Shown: piece after piece, positions 1 to 7,203 of the stretch
Position numbering within the stretch: position 1 is the stretch's first letter
How the letters are laid out: the number at the start of each line of letters is the position of its first letter
Source of the DNA: a virus
Lineage: Duplodnaviria; Heunggongvirae; Uroviricota; Caudoviricetes
Virus record (IMG/VR): IMGVR_UViG_3300018486_000146
Strand: one strand, 5' to 3'
Length of the DNA: 7,203 nt
Notes under the pieces: generated by a model
What the model was told of the DNA's origin: nothing
Database searches by the model: none
The model's input: the letters and a program-made list of their open reading frames with translations, nothing else
Position numbers and translations under genes: made by a program

Positions 1-22
1 CAGACGTGTGCTCTTCCGATCT
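1..22. other. Illumina TruSeq adapter remnant (CAGACGTGTGCTCTTCCGATCT), a library artefact and not biological sequence
   Basis: Bases 1-22 are the exact reverse complement of AGATCGGAAGAGCACACGTCTG, the start of the TruSeq read-through adapter, as recalled from memory. Confidence 0.85.
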
Positions 23-119
23 CTTTATCCGGTTGTGTGGCCTCCAGCGCCAGACTTCCTGGGCAGCGCATCCATCGATGCGCTGATGATGGAGAAAGTT
101 GTGCGTGAACGTCTGGCAT
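23..119 (-). CDS. 5' part of a further early-left gene, truncated by the window edge and adapter; unknown product, possibly a PD-(D/E)XK/Cas4-like nuclease
   Basis: ATG at 119..117 lies 2 nt after the TAA of the 300-aa gene and is preceded by GGAGGG with a 6-nt spacer. The frame stays open to the adapter boundary and reads [32 protein letters not shown]. The SxSxxxRWxxCPGS pattern recalls the N-terminus of Cas4/RecB-like phage nucleases, but the fragment is too short to be sure. Confidence 0.4.
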
Positions 120-121
120 GA

Positions 122-1024
122 TTAACCCTCCAGTGCTTTTTCAGCCAGGGTGATTACTTCAGCGAGATTTTCATCCGTTACTTCACCAAGTTTCCTGGCT
201 CCCTGTTTTTCCAGAATTGCAATAGCTTCTGCCCGGTAACCCCCTTTTGCTAACTGGAGGATCAACCCTTCAGCTTGTTTGCGTAGTGCCGCGAAATCAA
301 TTGTATGGTCATCTTTGGCGTCATTATTCTGGCTGGAATTTGCTGCGTCTCTGCGTGCAAATTCTTCCTGCAGCTGAAGGTACTCAACACGGTTGATCTC
401 GATATGGCCTTTTTTCAGCATCTCGTTCAACTTGCGTAAGGTGTGGAGTTCACTGGCTGCTGTGCCGGATACATTTTTGACGTAAAACGGCCCCGTGCGT
501 TCTCCATCCTTGTTACTGGCCTTTTTCGGCTTAACTTCATCACGCCCATCCGCAGGTGCATCAAGTAGCTGCTCGGCAAAAGCACGTCGTTCGCCGATGG
601 TTGGCAGGTCGTCCCAGAACTTAAGGATGTTACGGGACAGGTCCAGGAGAGCAGGTTTAAGCAGCGCCCTGGCTCGTTTGACGCCCTGCAATGCGCTGTC
701 GAGAGCATCAATCTGAACTACTCGTTTATCGCCTTCAGCATCACGGTAGGCAACAGCACGTTGCAGCATGTCTTCTGTGATAGGGGTGGCTACCGGGTAG
801 AAACCAGCCAGTGCGATAACGTCGCTGAACTCCAGATCATCCAGTGTCATTGCCGCTGACATATTTTCAGTTTCAGTTGCTGTATCCCGACATTCCTGCA
901 CTCGTGAAATCGTGTCAGGATGCATAACAATGCCTGATGCCATTGTGCGGATAAGACGTTCAAGCAGCGCATTATGTTGTGCCAGAAGTTGATTATTAAG
1001 TTCTAGACTGGTTTCTAAACTCAT
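122..1024 (-). CDS. Hypothetical early-left protein, 300 aa, function unknown
   Basis: Long ORF with an ATG start and a GAGGA Shine-Dalgarno 7 nt upstream. Its ATG overlaps the TGA of the upstream small ORF (ATGA coupling). The protein is predicted helix-rich, has an acidic C-terminal half and is not low-complexity. No family recognised by eye. Confidence 0.8.
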
Positions 1025-1170
1025 ACTGTGGTCCTCGCTACAAGGAGAATGAAAGTGATGATCAGACCGAGCGCAGTGGCAACGGCCAGACCGGTCATCA
1101 AATCGAAGTTTTTACGGCGATAACGGAGAACATCGCGCCCCGTCAGTCGATGGATGTGTTCAGGTTTCAT
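1021..1170 (-). CDS. Small membrane protein, 49 aa with one C-terminal transmembrane helix; possible kil-like or host-toxic early protein
   Basis: ATG at 1170 is preceded by AAGGA with a 9-nt spacer. Alternative in-frame starts are ATG 1191 and GTG 1203 (the ORF-track start). The C-terminus LMTGLAVATALGLIITFILLVA is hydrophobic. The stop overlaps the start of the 300-aa gene. Confidence 0.6.
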   Translation of the reverse strand: MKPEHIHRLTGRDVLRYRRKNFDLMTGLAVATALGLIITFILLVARTTV

Positions 1171-1227
1171 CGGTTGTATTCCTTTTTTCATATCGGGGAG
1201 CACGCTGTTGCGAGTGCGCTTTCAGAC

Positions 1228-1255
1228 ATAAAAAAGCCCGTCACGTGAGGCGGGC
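1228..1255 (-). terminator. Intrinsic terminator on the minus strand, in a tL1-like position
   Basis: On the minus strand the sequence reads GCCCG-CC-TCACGTGA-CGGGC followed by TTTTTTAT: a GC-rich stem then a U6 tract. On the plus strand the A-run precedes the hairpin, so it is unidirectional. It sits between the Cys-rich ORF and the downstream early-left genes. Confidence 0.55.
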
Positions 1256-1286
1256 AAAGACTACACACAGCAATTACATGGATGAT

Positions 1287-1481
1287 TCAGTTGGTATTGT
1301 GCGTACGTGGTACCACAAGGTTGAAGCGGACACGCCAGTGCGTTGCAATGGTATGCAGGAAAGCACCACATCCAGGGCAGTGCTCATAACATTCGTTGAT
1401 TTGGTATCGTTTTGGCTTTGGTGTCAGAAGCTGTGTTTGGCAAGCAGGGCATTCACCTTTGAGCGGTTTATACGTTTTCAC
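1287..1481 (-). CDS. Small Cys-rich protein, 64 aa, putative zinc ribbon (CPAC ... CYEHCPGC)
   Basis: GTG start at 1481 preceded by GAGGA with a 6-nt spacer. Five cysteines in a CxxC...CxxxCxxC arrangement. It is the first ORF downstream of the putative pL and is followed about 30 nt later by the terminator. Only 64 aa with a GTG start, so moderate confidence. Confidence 0.45.
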   Translation of the reverse strand: MKTYKPLKGECPACQTQLLTPKPKRYQINECYEHCPGCGAFLHTIATHWRVRFNLVVPRTHNTN

Positions 1482-1648
1482 GCCGTTTCCTCATTCAGTT
1501 CACTTTGGTGGTTCGGCGGCTTCGACTTGTATCAGTAGACAGTGCTTCGCCGCACCCCAAAGGGAACTTACTGACCCGTATTGCCGACATCCTGTCCCGC
1601 CACGGTCCCGACGCATGGATTAGAGTCGCGCCGTTCGACTTGTGGCTA

Positions 1649-1677
1649 AAGATACAATTTGAGTTGTATTGTGTAAA
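1649..1677 (-). promoter_or_regulatory. Candidate pL-like leftward promoter (-35 TTTACA, 17-bp spacer, -10 TATCTT) overlapping the left operator
   Basis: Read on the minus strand: TTTACA (plus 1677..1672), 17 nt, TATCTT (plus 1654..1649). The -10 is weak, and the transcription start is not determinable from sequence alone. Confidence 0.3.
1654..1667. promoter_or_regulatory. Candidate left operator: 14-bp 434-type site ACAATTTGAGTTGT
   Basis: Matches ACAA-N6-TTGT, the operator pattern of phage 434-family repressors. Its flank (TTGTATT followed by a -35-like hexamer on the minus strand) parallels the OR-A site at 2475-2488. Confidence 0.5.
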
Positions 1678-1764
1678 CCACAAATGTGGTATTTTGTGGG
1701 GTGTGAATACTACTTTATTGATATTTAAGTGAATTTAATTTGTAAGACTTTACAAATGGGGTAA

Positions 1765-1784
1765 GGGAGGCTGTTACGCCTCCC
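1765..1784 (-). terminator. GC-rich hairpin just 3' of cI; possible terminator or insulator for the cI transcript
   Basis: GGGAGGC-tgttac-GCCTCCC is a perfect 7-bp stem, 20 nt downstream of the cI stop. The following T tract is interrupted on both strands, so the strength is uncertain. Confidence 0.4.
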
Positions 1785-1803
1785 GATATTTACGGTGGGA
1801 ATA

Positions 1804-2427
1804 CTAACGTTTACGGCGGTAAATACGGTGTTCGATCATTACACCTATGATCTGTAAGTTCATATCTGCACTACGAAAAATAGGGTAATCAGGATTTAGG
1901 GGGATTAATTCAAAGTCGTCGATGCCGATTCCTAATGGACGGTATTTTTTAAATGTAGCTTCGTGGCCGTCGTTTTTGGCGACAACAAACTCCCCTGGTG
2001 CAGGACATAGATCAGGATCGATGATAACAATGTCTCCTTCTTTAAACTCTGGTTGCATGCTGTCGCCATCGATACGTAATGCGAAGCATGTTTCTGGAAT
2101 GTCAGAGTCTGCCAAAATATATTCAAATTCCCCTGTCAGATCTGTTATGTCTCTTGCTTCTGTAAGCTCTCCTGCCTGAACGTAACTTAATATAGGTATG
2201 CGTCTGGTACTTATCTCCGCGAGAGGCATAATATTTTTACCGTTCAGTAGCCAGTCTGGGCTACATTTCAAGGCCTTAGCCAGATCCAGAAGATTGCGTG
2301 GCTTTCTGGTTCGTCCACTTTCGATGGATTCTATGGATTGTTGGCTAACCCCTGCAGAATTCGCTACTTCCACTTGAGTCATTCCTAATTCCAAACGACG
2401 TGCTTTAAAACGGGCTGCGAGAGACAT
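1804..2427 (-). CDS. cI: cI-type prophage repressor: N-terminal XRE/434-like HTH plus C-terminal LexA-like S24 autopeptidase domain
   Basis: The HTH region (MTQVEVANSAGVSQQSIESIESGRTRKPRNLLDLAKALKCSPDWLLNGK) aligns with the phage 434 repressor DNA-binding domain as recalled. The C-terminal domain carries an Ala-Gly cleavage site (VQAGEL), a GDSM serine motif and a downstream lysine (FKKY), typical of RecA-stimulated autocleavage. Start set at ATG 2427 (AAGGA 8 nt upstream), not the ORF-track start at 2478, which falls inside the operator region. Confidence 0.93.
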   Translation of the reverse strand: MSLAARFKARRLELGMTQVEVANSAGVSQQSIESIESGRTRKPRNLLDLAKALKCSPDWLLNGKNIMPLAEISTRRIPILSYVQAGELTEARDITDLTGEFEYILADSDIPETCFALRIDGDSMQPEFKEGDIVIIDPDLCPAPGEFVVAKNDGHEATFKKYRPLGIGIDDFELIPLNPDYPIFRSADMNLQIIGVMIEHRIYRRKR

Positions 2428-2450
2428 GGGATTAGTCCTTCTGGGTTGTA

Positions 2451-2472
2451 TTAATGTGTATCCCCACATTAA
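2451..2472. promoter_or_regulatory. 22-bp inverted repeat TTAATGTG-N6-CACATTAA in the cI-proximal part of the switch; unassigned protein-binding site
   Basis: Perfect 8-bp arms with a 6-bp spacer, 25-45 bp upstream of the cI start codon. It differs from the ACAA-N6-TTGT operators. A related AATGTGG / CCACAAATGTGG motif occurs at 1678-1689 near the left operator. Confidence 0.4.
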
Positions 2473-2474
2473 AA

Positions 2475-2488
2475 ACAATTTTTGTTGT
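2475..2488. promoter_or_regulatory. Right operator site OR-A (ACAATTTTTGTTGT), 434-type
   Basis: Exact ACAA-N6-TTGT match, immediately upstream of the -35 TTGACA of the rightward promoter. Confidence 0.5.
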
Positions 2489-2490
2489 AT

Positions 2491-2520
2491 TTGACAAACC
2501 TCGTTTGTTGTTGCTAAATA
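2491..2520 (+). promoter_or_regulatory. pR-like rightward promoter for cro and the primase-helicase (-35 TTGACA, 17-bp spacer, -10 CTAAAT/TAAATA)
   Basis: Consensus -35 TTGACA at 2491-2496; -10-like hexamer at 2514-2520; about 25 nt upstream of the cro ATG. Operator sites overlap it. Confidence 0.5.
2494..2508. promoter_or_regulatory. Right operator site OR-B (ACAAAC-CTC-GTTTGT), a perfect inverted repeat overlapping the pR -35/spacer
   Basis: Perfect 6-bp arms around a 3-bp centre. ACAA/TTGT ends as in 434 operators, but 15 bp long rather than 14. Confidence 0.45.
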
Positions 2521-2533
2521 CCACTAAAATTGT
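2520..2533. promoter_or_regulatory. Right operator site OR-C (ACCACTAAAATTGT), a degenerate 434-type site over the pR start region
   Basis: ACCA-N6-TTGT, one mismatch to the pattern, between the -10 and the cro ribosome-binding site. Confidence 0.35.
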
Positions 2534-2547
2534 ATGAGGTGAAAGCA

Positions 2548-2760
2548 ATGACCTTAGCGACCCGAGTAAAAGAACGACGTAAAGAACTCAAAATGACGCA
2601 AGTTACGTTGGCTGAGCTCACAGGAGTGAGCCAGCAGGCAATAAACAGAATTGAAAGTGGTGTTATTGCTCGGCCACGTTATCTTCTTGAAATGTCTATA
2701 GCATTGGATTGCGACCCTAATTGGCTGTTGTATGGCTCACAAAACGATAAAAAGGCGTAG
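2548..2760 (+). CDS. cro: Cro-like HTH repressor, 70 aa, phage 434 Cro family
   Basis: ATG 2548 with GAGGTG 6 nt upstream (the ORF-track start at 2530 is TTG). The sequence MTLATRVKERRKELKMTQVTLAELTGVSQQAINRIESGVIARPRYLLEMSIALDCDPNWLLYGSQNDKKA aligns along its length with 434 Cro as recalled. Divergent from cI across the operator region. Confidence 0.9.
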   Translation: MTLATRVKERRKELKMTQVTLAELTGVSQQAINRIESGVIARPRYLLEMSIALDCDPNWLLYGSQNDKKA

Positions 2761-2766
2761 CTCCCC

Positions 2767-4959
2767 ATGTCCGATAGCAAACCATGGGGAGCTACGCCTG
2801 ATGAGTGGTTTCATTTCGACCTGGTATTGGGGAGAACTGATCATCTTCTCCCAGTTGTATGTAACCCCAGTGCGACCATATCCCCTGATAGTAAACTGAA
2901 AGCGTTGGGTAAGACGCCGAGTCGCTATAACCGGGACCGCCAGGTCACCGGTATTGCTCAATGGACCGGGCATGTTGTTACTGAGCATGATTTTGCCCGC
3001 TGGTCGAATGAACCGGATTATGGCATCTGCGTGCGTACAGGCCATGGCTGGCTGGCGCTGGACTGTGATAGCGAAGATGAAGACATTCATGCAGATATTC
3101 GCAAAACGCTTGTGCAACTTCTGGGTGAGTTGCCGCCGCGACGCTGGCGAGCAAACAGTAATAAGTGTCTGTATCTGCTGGCCGTTGATGGTGATTTCCG
3201 TAAGCGTATCCATCGCCTGGCGGGGGATATGGGCATTATCGAGTTGCTGGCGAACGGGCAGCAGTTCGTTGCCTGCGGTACGCACAGCAGCGGCGCGCGT
3301 ATTGAATGGGACGGCGGTTTGCCGGATGAACCTCCGGCTATTACTGGTGAGCAGCTTGAAACGCTGTGGCAGCGCCTGGCTGAACAACTCCCTGTGTCGG
3401 TAACCACCGAAGCGGGCAACACGAAGATGCGCGACCGATCAGCATTCACGCCCGGCGCGACGGATGATACAGCTGAATATCTTGATGCCAATGGCTGGAC
3501 GCTGCTGGATGGCGCAAATGGTGAACGATATATCCGCTGTCCGTTTGAAGACGGCCACAGTAGCGGGGGCGATCCAACAAGCACAGTTTATTTTCCTGCG
3601 GGAACCGCGGGCTTTGAGCAGGGGCATTTTAAATGCCTGCATGCCAGTTGTGCGCATCGTGATGACGGAGATTTCCTTAATGCCATCGGGATCCGCAACG
3701 ACGATTTCGAAGATCTGACCAGCACCGAAGTGGCGGAACCTTTACCGCTGCCTGCTTTCGAGCGTGATAAATGGGGGCGTATCGAGGCAACAATCAGCAA
3801 CGCAGCCAAAGCAGTAGTACGCCCTGATTTTGTGGACATCGATATTCGCTTTGACCAGTTCCGCGACGAAATCATGTTTGCCCCTGCAGGATCCGGACAA
3901 TGGCGGGCATTCACCGATGCGGATTATGCGCGCCTGCGCATCACGATGGAAAAGCGGGGATTTAAACCTGTTGGTCGTGAACTTATTCGCGATGTGGTGT
4001 TACTTGCAGCCGATGAACAACCATTCGATTCAGCGATCACCTGGCTGAACGGACTGGAGTGGGATGGCGTGCCGCGCATCGAATGTTTCTACCATACGCA
4101 CTTCGGTACAGCCGACACGCCTTATACCCGTGCGGTGTCTATGTACATGTGGACCGCGTTGGCGGGGCGAGTACTGGAGCCAGGCATCAAAGCGGATATG
4201 GTGCCGATCCTCGTTGGTCCGCAGGGCTGCGGTAAGTCTTCCGGAGTGGAGGCACTGAGCCCTGATCCTGCGTTTTTTACTGAAATCTCTTTTGCCGAAA
4301 AAGACGATGATCTCGCTCGAAAAATGCGTGGTCGGCTGGTGGCAGAGATTGGTGAACTGCGCGGACTTAATACCAAAGAGCTGGAGTCAATCAAAGCGTT
4401 TGTGACGCGTACTCACGAAAACTGGATCCCGAAATACCGGGAGTTCGCCACCCAGTTTCCTCGTCGCCTGGTGTTCGTTGGTACCACCAATGAGGACGAA
4501 TTCCTTGCGGACAAGACTGGTAACCGTCGCTGGCTCCCCGTGGAAGTGTCGAAAGTCGACGTGAAAGCGATAAAAAGAGATCTCCTTTTACTTTGGGCTG
4601 AGGCTCGTGAGGTGTTTCAGCGTCTGGGGGGTATCCAGTTCCGTGAGGCTGAACAACTGGCAGCGAGTGTCCATGAACAGTACACCATCAAGGATGCTTG
4701 GCTTGAAACGGTAGAGAAATGGCTCGACACGCCAGACCTGATGACTAATGAACTTCCGCGAAATTGCGAATTTTTACGCGCAAGTGATGTTTTGCGTGAT
4801 GCGATTGGGCTAAATCCTGACCGCATCGGAAAACGCGAAGAAATGCGAATTAGTAATGTTTTGCAAAATTGCGGGTATAAGCGTGCCCAAAGGCGAATTG
4901 GGGGGAAAATGACTCGAATTTTTGAGGCGGTGTCCCAACCTGTACCAACCTCAAAATAG
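2767..4959 (+). CDS. Replication initiator: primase-polymerase N-terminal domain, zinc-binding Cys/His cluster, and C-terminal P-loop SF3/D5/VirE-like helicase domain (730 aa)
   Basis: N-terminal DxD motif (LALDCDSEDED) and GTHSSG, consistent with prim-pol. Cys/His cluster CPFEDGH...HFKCLHASCAH. Walker A GPQGCGKSS and an SF3-like motif C (VFVGTTNE). Starts 6 bp after the cro stop. Iterons lie at and after its 3' end. Confidence 0.92.
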   Translation: MSDSKPWGATPDEWFHFDLVLGRTDHLLPVVCNPSATISPDSKLKALGKTPSRYNRDRQVTGIAQWTGHVVTEHDFARWSNEPDYGICVRTGHGWLALDCDSEDEDIHADIRKTLVQLLGELPPRRWRANSNKCLYLLAVDGDFRKRIHRLAGDMGIIELLANGQQFVACGTHSSGARIEWDGGLPDEPPAITGEQLETLWQRLAEQLPVSVTTEAGNTKMRDRSAFTPGATDDTAEYLDANGWTLLDGANGERYIRCPFEDGHSSGGDPTSTVYFPAGTAGFEQGHFKCLHASCAHRDDGDFLNAIGIRNDDFEDLTSTEVAEPLPLPAFERDKWGRIEATISNAAKAVVRPDFVDIDIRFDQFRDEIMFAPAGSGQWRAFTDADYARLRITMEKRGFKPVGRELIRDVVLLAADEQPFDSAITWLNGLEWDGVPRIECFYHTHFGTADTPYTRAVSMYMWTALAGRVLEPGIKADMVPILVGPQGCGKSSGVEALSPDPAFFTEISFAEKDDDLARKMRGRLVAEIGELRGLNTKELESIKAFVTRTHENWIPKYREFATQFPRRLVFVGTTNEDEFLADKTGNRRWLPVEVSKVDVKAIKRDLLLLWAEAREVFQRLGGIQFREAEQLAASVHEQYTIKDAWLETVEKWLDTPDLMTNELPRNCEFLRASDVLRDAIGLNPDRIGKREEMRISNVLQNCGYKRAQRRIGGKMTRIFEAVSQPVPTSK

Positions 4960-5112
4960 ATGTTGGTACATTTTAACTAATTGAATTTAAAGGCCGGTAC
5001 CAACTGTACCATCTGTACCAACCTAATTACTAAGAACCCCATATATATATATAAGTCGCTTGGGGAAAAGGTTTGAAAAGAGCTGGTACAGGTGGGTACA
5101 GGTTGGTACAGG
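4931..5112. repeat. Iteron array flanking an (AT)n tract: putative phage origin of replication
   Basis: Core TGTACCA(ACC) in direct orientation at 4931-4950 (two tandem 10-mers inside the primase 3' end), 4996-5004, 5005-5013 and 5014-5023. ATATATATATATA at 5041-5053. Inverted copies (C/T)(T/G)GGTACAGG at 5083-5092, 5093-5102 and 5103-5112 with exact 10-bp periodicity, plus one inverted copy at 4961-4970. Confidence 0.65.
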
Positions 5113-5167
5113 CCGAACAAGGAATTTTTTGCGCATAACAGCGTGTAATAAGCGAATCGGAACTGCG

Positions 5168-5176
5168 TTATCCACA
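5168..5176 (+). promoter_or_regulatory. Consensus DnaA box TTATCCACA next to the iteron origin
   Basis: Exact 9/9 match to TTATCCACA, about 55 bp downstream of the last iteron. An inverted GGATAA follows 8 bp later. A single 9-mer can occur by chance (roughly 5% expectation in this window), so the location is what gives it weight. Confidence 0.45.
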
Positions 5177-5240
5177 CCCACGGATAAACAAACGTGGTTC
5201 TCAGAAAATTTTTTCGTAGCAAAACGTAGAGGTCAGAGCT

Positions 5241-5663
5241 ATGCGTAATATTCAACAGGTTTTAGAGCGCTGGGGTGGCTGGGCAGCGAGTGAAGGTGGT
5301 AGCGTCTACTTTCCTCCTGTTGCAGCCGGGTTTAAGAATCTGCTACCCGCGACGCAGTCTGGAAGGCTGAAATGCAGTGACAATGACGGACTTATCATCA
5401 ACTCCGCTATGAGCTGCCTGAAGAAAAAAGATCCGTATCTGTGCACGCTCCTTGAGTGGCATTACGTCCAGGCCATGCCCGTGCGGGCGATGGGTGAGAA
5501 GCTCGGCGTATCTCACACCCACGTTCTGAAGAGGCTTCAGGCGGCAGAGGGATTTATTGACGGTTGCTTAGCCATGCTGGATGTGGTGCTCGAAATGGAT
5601 CAGTCGGTTCAGTCAAAGCCTCAGGCTATCAGGACTTTGCGTAGGAGCTGCTCGGCGGCATAA
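5241..5663 (+). CDS. Q: Late-gene antiterminator Q, phage 82 / QuuD family (140 aa)
   Basis: ATG 5241 with TAGAGG upstream. Motifs LERWGGWAA, AAGFKNL and KRLQAAEGFIDGCLAMLDVVLEMD align with the E. coli DLP12 QuuD antiterminator as recalled (LERWGAWAA, AAGFKGL, KRLQKAEGIIEGMLMALDIRLEMD). Confidence 0.82.
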   Translation: MRNIQQVLERWGGWAASEGGSVYFPPVAAGFKNLLPATQSGRLKCSDNDGLIINSAMSCLKKKDPYLCTLLEWHYVQAMPVRAMGEKLGVSHTHVLKRLQAAEGFIDGCLAMLDVVLEMDQSVQSKPQAIRTLRRSCSAA

Positions 5664-5664
5664 T
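5637..5664 (+). promoter_or_regulatory. Candidate late promoter pR' at the 3' end of Q (-35 TTGCGT, 16-bp spacer, -10 CATAAT); tentative
   Basis: This is the position where lambdoid pR' promoters sit, immediately after Q. The hexamers are only moderate matches and no Q-utilisation or pause element could be verified by eye. An alternative location is the AT-rich 6128-6357 region. Confidence 0.25.
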
Positions 5665-5694
5665 ATCCAGCAATCAATCACGTAAGGGAACCAG

Positions 5695-6036
5695 ATGGCT
5701 CTGATCAGCGTTCGCAACAGATTTGAAAGCTTCATGGAACAGAGGTACCCAGACCTGTCGTTGCAGGTCAAAGGTAATATTAGCGCATCAATGAAGGCTC
5801 AACTTGGCATCAGGATTGAACGAGAATTGTACAGTGAAGATGTTACTTACTGTGATTCAGCAGTTCAGTTGATGTGGACACTCTTTCAGGCAGGTGTTCT
5901 GGCCGAACGAAGAGCTACCAGCGTTACGCTTCCTGCGCTGAAGGCAAAGCCGGATAGCTTCTACGATGCGGGTTATAACGAAGGTATTCAGGACTGTCGT
6001 AAACATCTGACGGCATCAGGCATCAAGGTAAGATAA
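5695..6036 (+). CDS. Hypothetical protein, 113 aa, in the Q-to-lysis (stx-equivalent) cargo slot; function unknown
   Basis: ATG 5695 with AAGGGAA upstream. The protein is not low-complexity and no transmembrane segment or signal peptide is obvious. An intrinsic terminator follows about 70 bp downstream. No family recognised. Confidence 0.6.
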   Translation: MALISVRNRFESFMEQRYPDLSLQVKGNISASMKAQLGIRIERELYSEDVTYCDSAVQLMWTLFQAGVLAERRATSVTLPALKAKPDSFYDAGYNEGIQDCRKHLTASGIKVR

Positions 6037-6103
6037 AAAATAGTTGTGGAATTCCAAAAAGCCGATTAGCCTGATATCCGTTGAAAACAGTTCATCACGA
6101 AGA

Positions 6104-6127
6104 GGCTTCCGCAAGGGGGCCTTTTTT
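6104..6127 (+). terminator. Intrinsic terminator downstream of the 113-aa ORF
   Basis: GGCTTCC-GCAA-GGGGGCC forms a 7-bp stem (5 Watson-Crick and 2 G-U pairs) with a GNRA tetraloop, followed by TTTTTT. Confidence 0.6.
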
Positions 6128-6357
6128 ATTGCCCCATTCTGGGGAAAAGTTAATAAAACAGGGCTTTCGCTGCGAAAAAACGCTATGCAGTTTTTGCCCT
6201 TTTTTATGCACCTTTTATTCACTCGAATTTCGTCATTCTGGACCACTTAAGTTGATTAAATAGTCCTTTCATCGCAAATCTATTGCGAGCGGGGATCGTG
6301 TGGTTCCTATAACGTACATTATGTTAAATAACTTCCTTTTTTAACAAATTTAACAAG

Positions 6358-6380
6358 GTTCGCTATGGCGAACTTTTTTT
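6358..6380 (+). terminator. Strong intrinsic terminator upstream of the lysis genes, a tR'-like candidate
   Basis: GTTCGC-tatg-GCGAAC is a perfect 6-bp stem with a 4-nt loop, followed by seven T. It lies about 100 bp upstream of the holin start. Confidence 0.7.
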
Positions 6381-6481
6381 GTATTCAGGGCCCACCGAAG
6401 GACGGCTCATAACCCAATCCTACGGGCGTATACGCAGGGCCCGCCTTTCAACAACACCCCGTAATGGCGGAGGTGGGAAGT

Positions 6482-6823
6482 ATGAAAATGCACAATGCTC
6501 CTCATTCCTGGCCTGACTTACTGGAACTCTTACAAAGTTGGTGGCGTGGAGATACGCCGTTGGGCGCAGTGGTTATGTCAATTGTTATGGCTGGCTTGCG
6601 CATTGCCTATTTTGGCGGTGGCGGCGGCTGGAAACGAAAAACGCTTGAGATTTTGCTCTGTGGTGCTCTGACGCTGACTTTTGCATCCGCTCTTGAGTAT
6701 GTCGGATGGCCTAAATCGCTTTCTGTTGCCATTGGTGGTGGTGTTGGGCTGATCGGTGTCGATGCTATTCGTGGGGCTGCAATGCGAGTAATCGGTAACA
6801 AATTTGGTGGCTCTAAGGAGTAA
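6482..6823 (+). CDS. Holin, 113 aa, three predicted transmembrane segments, with a Met-Lys-Met dual-start motif (possible holin/antiholin pair)
   Basis: GGAGGTGGG at 6469-6477 precedes ATG 6482, AAA, ATG 6488. Hydrophobic segments LGAVVMSIVMAGLRIAYF, LEILLCGALTLTFASALEYV and SLSVAIGGGVGLIGVDAI. The stop lies 3 nt before the endolysin start. The ORF-track start at 6464 falls inside the Shine-Dalgarno and was rejected. Not similar to lambda S by eye. Confidence 0.8.
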   Translation: MKMHNAPHSWPDLLELLQSWWRGDTPLGAVVMSIVMAGLRIAYFGGGGGWKRKTLEILLCGALTLTFASALEYVGWPKSLSVAIGGGVGLIGVDAIRGAAMRVIGNKFGGSKE

Positions 6824-6826
6824 TTT

Positions 6827-7203
6827 ATGCAGGTACTAAATTCCCAGCGTAAAGCTTTCCTGGATATGGTGGCATGGTCAGAAGGAACGGATAACGGGCG
6901 ACAACCGACACGTAACCACGGTTATGACGTTATTGTTGGTGGTGAACTGTTTACTGATTACTCCGATCATCCTCACAAACTTGTCACGCTAAACCCGAAA
7001 CTTAAATCAACAGCTGCCGGACGTTATCAGCTTCTTTCCCGTTGGTGGGATGCTTACCGTAAACAGCTTGGTTTGAAAGACTTCTCCCCCAAAAGCCAGG
7101 ACGCTGTGGCATTGCAGCAGATTAAAGAGCGTGGCGCTTTACCGATGATTGATCGCGGTGATATTCGTCAGGCTATCGACCGTTGCAGCAATATCTGGGC
7201 TTC
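6827..7203 (+). CDS. R: Endolysin, lambda R-type lytic transglycosylase, 5' portion (truncated by window end)
   Basis: AAGGAG 6 nt upstream of ATG 6827. The translation MQVLNSQRKAFLDMVAWSEGTDNGRQPTRNHGYDVIVGGELFTDYSDHP...RCSNIWA is nearly identical to lambda R as recalled, including the catalytic-glutamate motif AWSEGTD. The open frame runs to the window end. Confidence 0.95.
   Translation, partial: MQVLNSQRKAFLDMVAWSEGTDNGRQPTRNHGYDVIVGGELFTDYSDHPHKLVTLNPKLKSTAAGRYQLLSRWWDAYRKQLGLKDFSPKSQDAVALQQIKERGALPMIDRGDIRQAIDRCSNIWA

Follow-up and report, generated by a model that had tools for sequence, protein, structure and literature searches.

The record IMGVR_UViG_3300018486_000146 opens with 22 bases that raise a simple question: are they the edge of a phage genome, or did they come from the sequencing library? 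To address this, we analyzed the whole stretch of 7,203 nucleotides (the window), for which a first-pass annotation had proposed that positions 1 to 22 are Illumina adapter sequence. On the plus strand, these positions read CAGACGTGTGCTCTTCCGATCT. This string matches positions 13 to 34 of the 34-mer GTGACTGGAGTTCAGACGTGTGCTCTTCCGATCT at 22 of 22 bases, with zero mismatches and with the terminal T included. The 34-mer is printed widely in the literature and is given as the Illumina "Read2 sequencing primer" in PMC7380104, where its reverse complement, AGATCGGAAGAGCACACGTCTGAACTCCAGTCAC, is the i7 index-read primer. The window opens at adapter position 13; the first 12 nt of the adapter, the index, and P7 are absent, and with the last two the identification would have been fully redundant. 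We take the 34-mer to be the i7-side arm of TruSeq/NEBNext-type ligation adapters. Its reverse complement is the string that is clipped off Read 1 at its 3' ends, and AGATCGGAAGAGC is an example of the adapter-trimming string used with cutadapt.

The match is unique within the window. When up to three mismatches were allowed, the 22-mer was still found only once in the whole window, at positions 1 to 22 on the plus strand, and no match was found in 200 dinucleotide-preserving shuffles of the window. Any particular 22-mer is expected with a frequency of about 6e-14 per position. The 13-nt core that is common to both TruSeq arms, GCTCTTCCGATCT, was found at positions 10 to 22 only; a second copy of this core was absent from the whole window, including its 3' end, and no Nextera adapter was found anywhere in the window, again including the 3' end. 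In some genomes, the match to the window extends through its final base (7203), which indicates that the 3' end is not adapter. The remnant is the 22-nt 3' end of the Read 2 primer site; it forms the 5' edge of the window on the plus strand and lies in adapter-to-insert orientation.

We then compared the sequence on the two sides of the 22/23 junction to that of natural relatives. Using window positions 1 to 1200 as a megablast query, we recovered 152 complete Escherichia coli genomes and three induced E. coli phages (vB_EcoM-606R2, -689R2, and -611R5; 99.2% identity), and every listed alignment started at query base 22. When the whole window was used, prophages in 45 genomes aligned in one piece from position 22 to position 7200/7203 at 99.1% identity. 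The 730-aa VapE-domain protein of the window (described below) was also looked up by exact protein identity, which returned three E. coli contigs (L160 to L162), none of them with the adapter. The homology of these contigs starts at base 22 as well, and they are 100% identical to the window over positions 22 to 6801 (L160). Homology to every natural relative thus begins at the boundary between adapter and insert.

In place of the adapter, the upstream sequence of the natural relatives is ...GCAAAAGTTGTTT. The 22 bases upstream of CTTTATCC were CCCTC[G/A]ATTGCAAAAGTTGTTT in 39/39 relatives examined, and their ungapped identity to window positions 1 to 22 was 7 to 8 of 22, which is the chance level. 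An alignment made with MAFFT introduced a 20-nt gap and part-aligned the adapter to the upstream genomic DNA; given the low ungapped identity, we rejected this alignment as an artefact. Across the junction, the relatives read ...AAAAGTTGTTT and continue directly into CTTTATCC, and the window opens with CAGACGTGTGCTCTTCCGATCT and continues directly into CTTTATCCGG.... The chimeric junction GCTCTTCCGATCTCTTTATCCGGTTGTGTGGCCTCC had no exact matches in IMG/VR, JGI metagenome contigs, or GTDB genome contigs. The presence of CAGACGTGTGCTCTTCCGATCTCTTTATCCGG inside any natural isolate genome would be contrary to the adapter reading. The genuine junction, AAAAGTTGTTTCTTTATCCGG..., was found in 37 IMG/VR contigs; it was always internal and was preceded by 109 to 12,300 nt of further sequence. 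Among INPHARED phages, there was no 100% full-length match to the window.

The single base at position 22 deserves separate mention. In TruSeq chemistry, the adapter supplies the terminal T, and the T overhang is needed for ligation. Because the window contains only one T before CTTTATCC and ligation proceeds through this overhang, the library insert began at base 23. This agrees with the first-pass annotation, which had placed the true start of the insert at that base, with one nuance: T22 is the terminal T of the adapter and, by coincidence, is also the genomic base in the relatives. Accordingly, BLAST homology starts at position 22 rather than 23, and the correct sequence results whether 21 or 22 bases are trimmed. 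Collectively, the exact match to the adapter and the loss of homology right at the adapter boundary in all relatives bear out the proposal that positions 1 to 22 are Illumina adapter. We estimate a probability of roughly 97% that these bases represent the 3' end of a synthetic i7-side adapter that was ligated via its T overhang to a fragment ending at base 23, and that their presence in the record is an assembly artefact.

The junction falls within a coding sequence. Positions 23 to 119 on the minus strand (start codon at 119 to 117) contain the 5' fragment of a DUF2800 / PD-(D/E)XK nuclease-superfamily gene, and the corresponding open reading frame (ORF), 119..1, runs off the 5' end of the window. 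Its translation has 39 residues and reads MPDV...QPDKE followed by IGRAHV, six residues that are encoded by the adapter, where the prophage protein WP_032348529.1 (433 aa) reads MPDV...QPDKE-TTFAIEGTAAH.... The translated frame leaves the conserved protein exactly at the junction. There are 32 genuine complete codons, and codon 33 spans the junction (GAG in the window and GAA in the relatives, both of which encode Glu); the remaining 400 of 433 codons are missing from the window. The natural continuation leftward from base 23 would lead into ...AAACAACTTTTGCAATCGAGGG, in the DUF2800 gene. The full-length 433-aa relative matches PF10926 (DUF2800; E = 3.3e-110) and PF12705 (PDDEXK_1; E = 4.9e-10). 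Residues 1 to 33 of the window are identical to this protein, and it is through this identity, rather than through a profile match of its own, that the fragment is assigned to the DUF2800 / PD-(D/E)XK family. The warning that ORFs crossing positions 1 to 22 are invalid was therefore justified, as ORF 119..1 gains IGRAHV where the relatives read TTFAIE....

If positions 1 to 22 are a ligation product, the same string should not be peculiar to this phage, and an exact scan of IMG/VR for the 22-mer identified at least 120 unrelated contigs that carry it (L003 to L122), with 125 occurrences among the matches listed. In 122 of these 125 listed occurrences, the 22-mer faces inward and is no farther than 250 nt from the end of a locus. 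Across the listed occurrences, the 12 nt that precede the 22-mer agree with the rest of the adapter, GTGACTGGAGTT, at 98.6% of positions, and where there was enough flanking sequence to look further, a fragment of P7 (which we take to be ATCTCGTATGCCGTCTTCTGCTTG) was found upstream in 31 of 43 listed occurrences. On the other side, the downstream 15-mers are distinct in 124 of the 125. A tail of exactly 22 nt, as in the window, was seen in 9 of the 125 listed occurrences, and the median tail is about 48 nt. This pattern is the signature of a synthetic sequence that became ligated to whatever fragments were present and that remained at the tips of contigs. In three of the contigs (L014, at 10 to 31 on the plus strand and 4624 to 4645 on the minus strand; L047; and L053), the 22-mer is present at both ends in an inward orientation, which creates false terminal inverted repeats. 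In L068 (1037 to 1058), the 22-mer is internal and is preceded by non-adapter sequence, which may reflect a chimeric join.

While the fusion at base 23 is observed directly, its history can be proposed from standard knowledge of Illumina libraries. If a library fragment was shorter than the read length, Read 1 would run through the insert and into the i7-side adapter. The minus strand of the window reads ...CCGGATAAAG followed by AGATCGGAAGAGCACACGTCTG, which we take to be the classic string produced by Read 1 read-through. The adapter in such reads would have been left untrimmed or only partly trimmed, and the assembler may then have lengthened the contig tip with read-through reads, such that the contig stops inside the adapter. 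The true continuation may have lost out through low coverage, a co-resident prophage repeat, or an over-represented fragment end.

Could positions 1 to 22 instead be genuine phage DNA, where a mosaic recombination breakpoint joins the window to a module unlike that of all relatives? The phages of this group are indeed mosaic: the induced phages share only positions 22 to 1283 and 5216 to 7200 with the window, and the endolysin allele switches at about position 6802, so a loss of homology is not unusual by itself. The breakpoint would, however, have to coincide with a 22/22 match to a synthetic adapter that ends at the last base of that adapter, for which the chance is about 6e-14. It would also have to interrupt a conserved nuclease gene at codon 33 of 433. 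No variant was found at this position in 155 annotated relatives, 37 viral contigs, and 3 near-identical contigs. Moreover, among the IMG/VR matches listed, the same 22-mer is joined to 124 unrelated sequences near contig ends. The synthetic match, the conserved gene, and the lack of a natural variant effectively refute a mosaic breakpoint, which we regard as vanishingly improbable.

Two further explanations accept that the bases are adapter, and we consider each of them very unlikely. The adapter might mark an internal chimeric join between two unrelated fragments in a longer record, in which case base 1 would not be a contig end. Internal occurrences do exist: 3 of the 125 listed in IMG/VR (in L026, L068, and L079) are separated from the nearest locus end by more than 250 nt. 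But the boundary of the window would then need to fall by chance within a 34-nt adapter, the other 122 listed occurrences are near an end (nine with a 22-nt tail, as here), and the junction pattern was matched in none of the three contig collections, so that no longer parent record is visible. Alternatively, the adapter could be real while base 23 represents an over-represented physical DNA end (a nuclease cut, a molecule terminus, or a replication/packaging intermediate). Assemblers normally prune low-coverage adapter tips if coverage of the true continuation is good, from which we infer either poor coverage beyond the junction or a frequent fragment end; in the latter case, many fragments would start at base 23, and the assembler would have favored the adapter junction over the genomic continuation. 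Against this, base 23 falls within the coding sequence of DUF2800, with the terminase genes about 7 kb away, and the relatives have continuous sequence on both sides of it with no mark of packaging or excision. Also, adapter tails are found on at least 120 unrelated contigs, so no special biology is needed to account for this one. We therefore favor ligated adapter retained at a contig tip: positions 1 to 22 are an ordinary, well-known technical artefact without biological meaning and are not a feature of the phage genome.

By contrast with its first 22 bases, the rest of the window (23 to 7203) is genuine and belongs to a temperate phage or prophage of E. coli. Its left part is a block of leftward genes. 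A complete gene for a 300-aa hypothetical protein (122 to 1024, minus strand; from the ORF list, with the same annotation in relatives) lies directly upstream, in the direction of transcription, of the truncated DUF2800 gene in the same block; no Pfam family was found for this protein. It is preceded by a 49-aa gene (1021 to 1170, minus strand; ORF list and annotation of relatives). Farther right is a CI/LexA-type repressor with HTH_3 and Peptidase_S24 domains (1804 to 2427, minus strand, with coordinates transferred from the annotation of L160; PF00717, E = 2.3e-21; PF01381, E = 1.2e-12). Together with a cro-like HTH gene (2548 to 2760, plus strand), this repressor forms a divergent immunity switch, of which it is the left arm, and the genes to the left of the repressor are on the same strand as it. 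Between the repressor and the leftward genes lie 600 nt (1204 to 1803) that have no annotated gene in RefSeq relatives. This stretch contains a 64-aa ORF (1287 to 1481, minus strand) with two CxxC pairs (CPAC...CPGC) that is zinc-ribbon-like, and this ORF is followed on the same strand by a GC hairpin (about 1226 to 1255) and U6, which is terminator-like, with a fold z-score that is not significant.

In the relatives, this block extends past the left edge of the window, first through the rest of the DUF2800 gene and then through a DUF2815/Enc34 single-stranded DNA-binding protein and a family-A DNA polymerase. Farther leftward are small genes, a VRR-NUC nuclease, and a DEAD/SNF2 helicase, and in the prophage L001, an HTH gene and an integrase follow the helicase, by about 9 kb. 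L160 has about 7.3 kb of this block beyond the window, and L001 about 8.2 kb (overall, about 7 to 9 kb). The first-pass annotation had also stated that an early-left operon continues beyond the record, and the relatives do add 400 DUF2800 codons and about 7 to 9 kb of minus-strand genes. The label "early-left operon" fits the gene order, and it is only by gene order that the block would qualify as an operon in the lambda sense. A promoter consensus scan of the window found 6 sites compared to 8.1 expected from shuffles, which argues neither for nor against a PL-type promoter, and no N-like protein was identified. Beside the DNA polymerase, L160 (2283 to 3044) and L002 (the phage vB_EcoM-689R2; 3105 to 3866) carry a TIR-domain gene (PF10137, CAP12-PCTIR_TIR), and the E. 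coli 97-3250 prophage (L001, 3215 to 3726) has ANR-family and DUF4406 genes at this position instead. This cargo slot is therefore variable, and its contents are possibly defence-related.

The cro-like gene opens a rightward block on the plus strand, whose assignments are based on Pfam and on the annotation of relatives. It is followed by the gene for the 730-aa VapE-domain protein (2767 to 4959), a Q-family antiterminator (5241 to 5663) with a 113-aa ORF downstream (5695 to 6036), a lambda-family holin (6482 to 6823), and an endolysin gene (6827 to beyond 7203), of which the end of the window leaves the first 125 codons. Of the terminator-like sites in the window, the best one has a 9-bp stem with a T run behind it (6355 to 6376, plus strand); it sits in a 426-nt non-coding gap (within 6037 to 6481) between the 113-aa ORF and the holin gene. 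The Q antiterminator could act here, with the site as its tR'-like target region. Across the whole window, Rfam (at gathering thresholds) and a tRNA scan found nothing.

The significance of the adapter remnant is one of data hygiene only. Positions 1 to 22 (or, equivalently, 1 to 21) should be removed before the record is annotated, used in homology searches, or submitted, and the fragment at 23 to 119 should be flagged as a 5'-partial DUF2800 gene. If the record is left untrimmed, the truncated nuclease ORF carries six false residues (IGRAHV), and the contig has a false "unique" end that may produce spurious matches to other contaminated contigs. Being artificial, this contig end carries no information on the terminus of the phage genome or the boundary of the prophage; it simply cuts the DUF2800 gene after codon 33 and hides the rest of the leftward block.

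Among known phages and prophages, the window is closest in organization to a group of E. coli prophages and induced phages, represented by the prophage of E. coli 97-3250 (NZ_CP027599.1, 1.374 to 1.394 Mb) and the three vB_EcoM phages. The prophages are collinear with positions 22 to 7200 at 99.1 to 99.5% identity. The gene order is shared: DUF2800, the 300-aa protein, repressor/cro, the VapE-domain protein, Q, holin, and endolysin. The induced phages vB_EcoM-689R2, -606R2, and -611R5 share only the two flanking segments with the window (22 to 1283 and 5216 to 7200) and have a different immunity / replication module at positions 1284 to 5215, which is a typical module exchange. The window also departs from L160 (GCA_012075565.1): all 38 differences between them fall within the last 400 bases (6802 to 7201; about 10% divergence), inside the endolysin gene, and the endolysin allele of the window differs from that of its otherwise identical relatives. 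This looks like a swap of the endolysin allele in which the holin/endolysin junction forms the mosaic boundary. For the first 22 bases, the appropriate comparison is to terminal adapter contamination, the class that is screened by VecScreen/UniVec and NCBI FCS-adaptor, the last of which is named in published papers. Compared to this class, the window has nothing distinctive, and its 22-nt tail is among the shorter ones; it shares with the class the same position at the edge of the record, the inward orientation, the break in homology, and the attachment to unrelated sequence.
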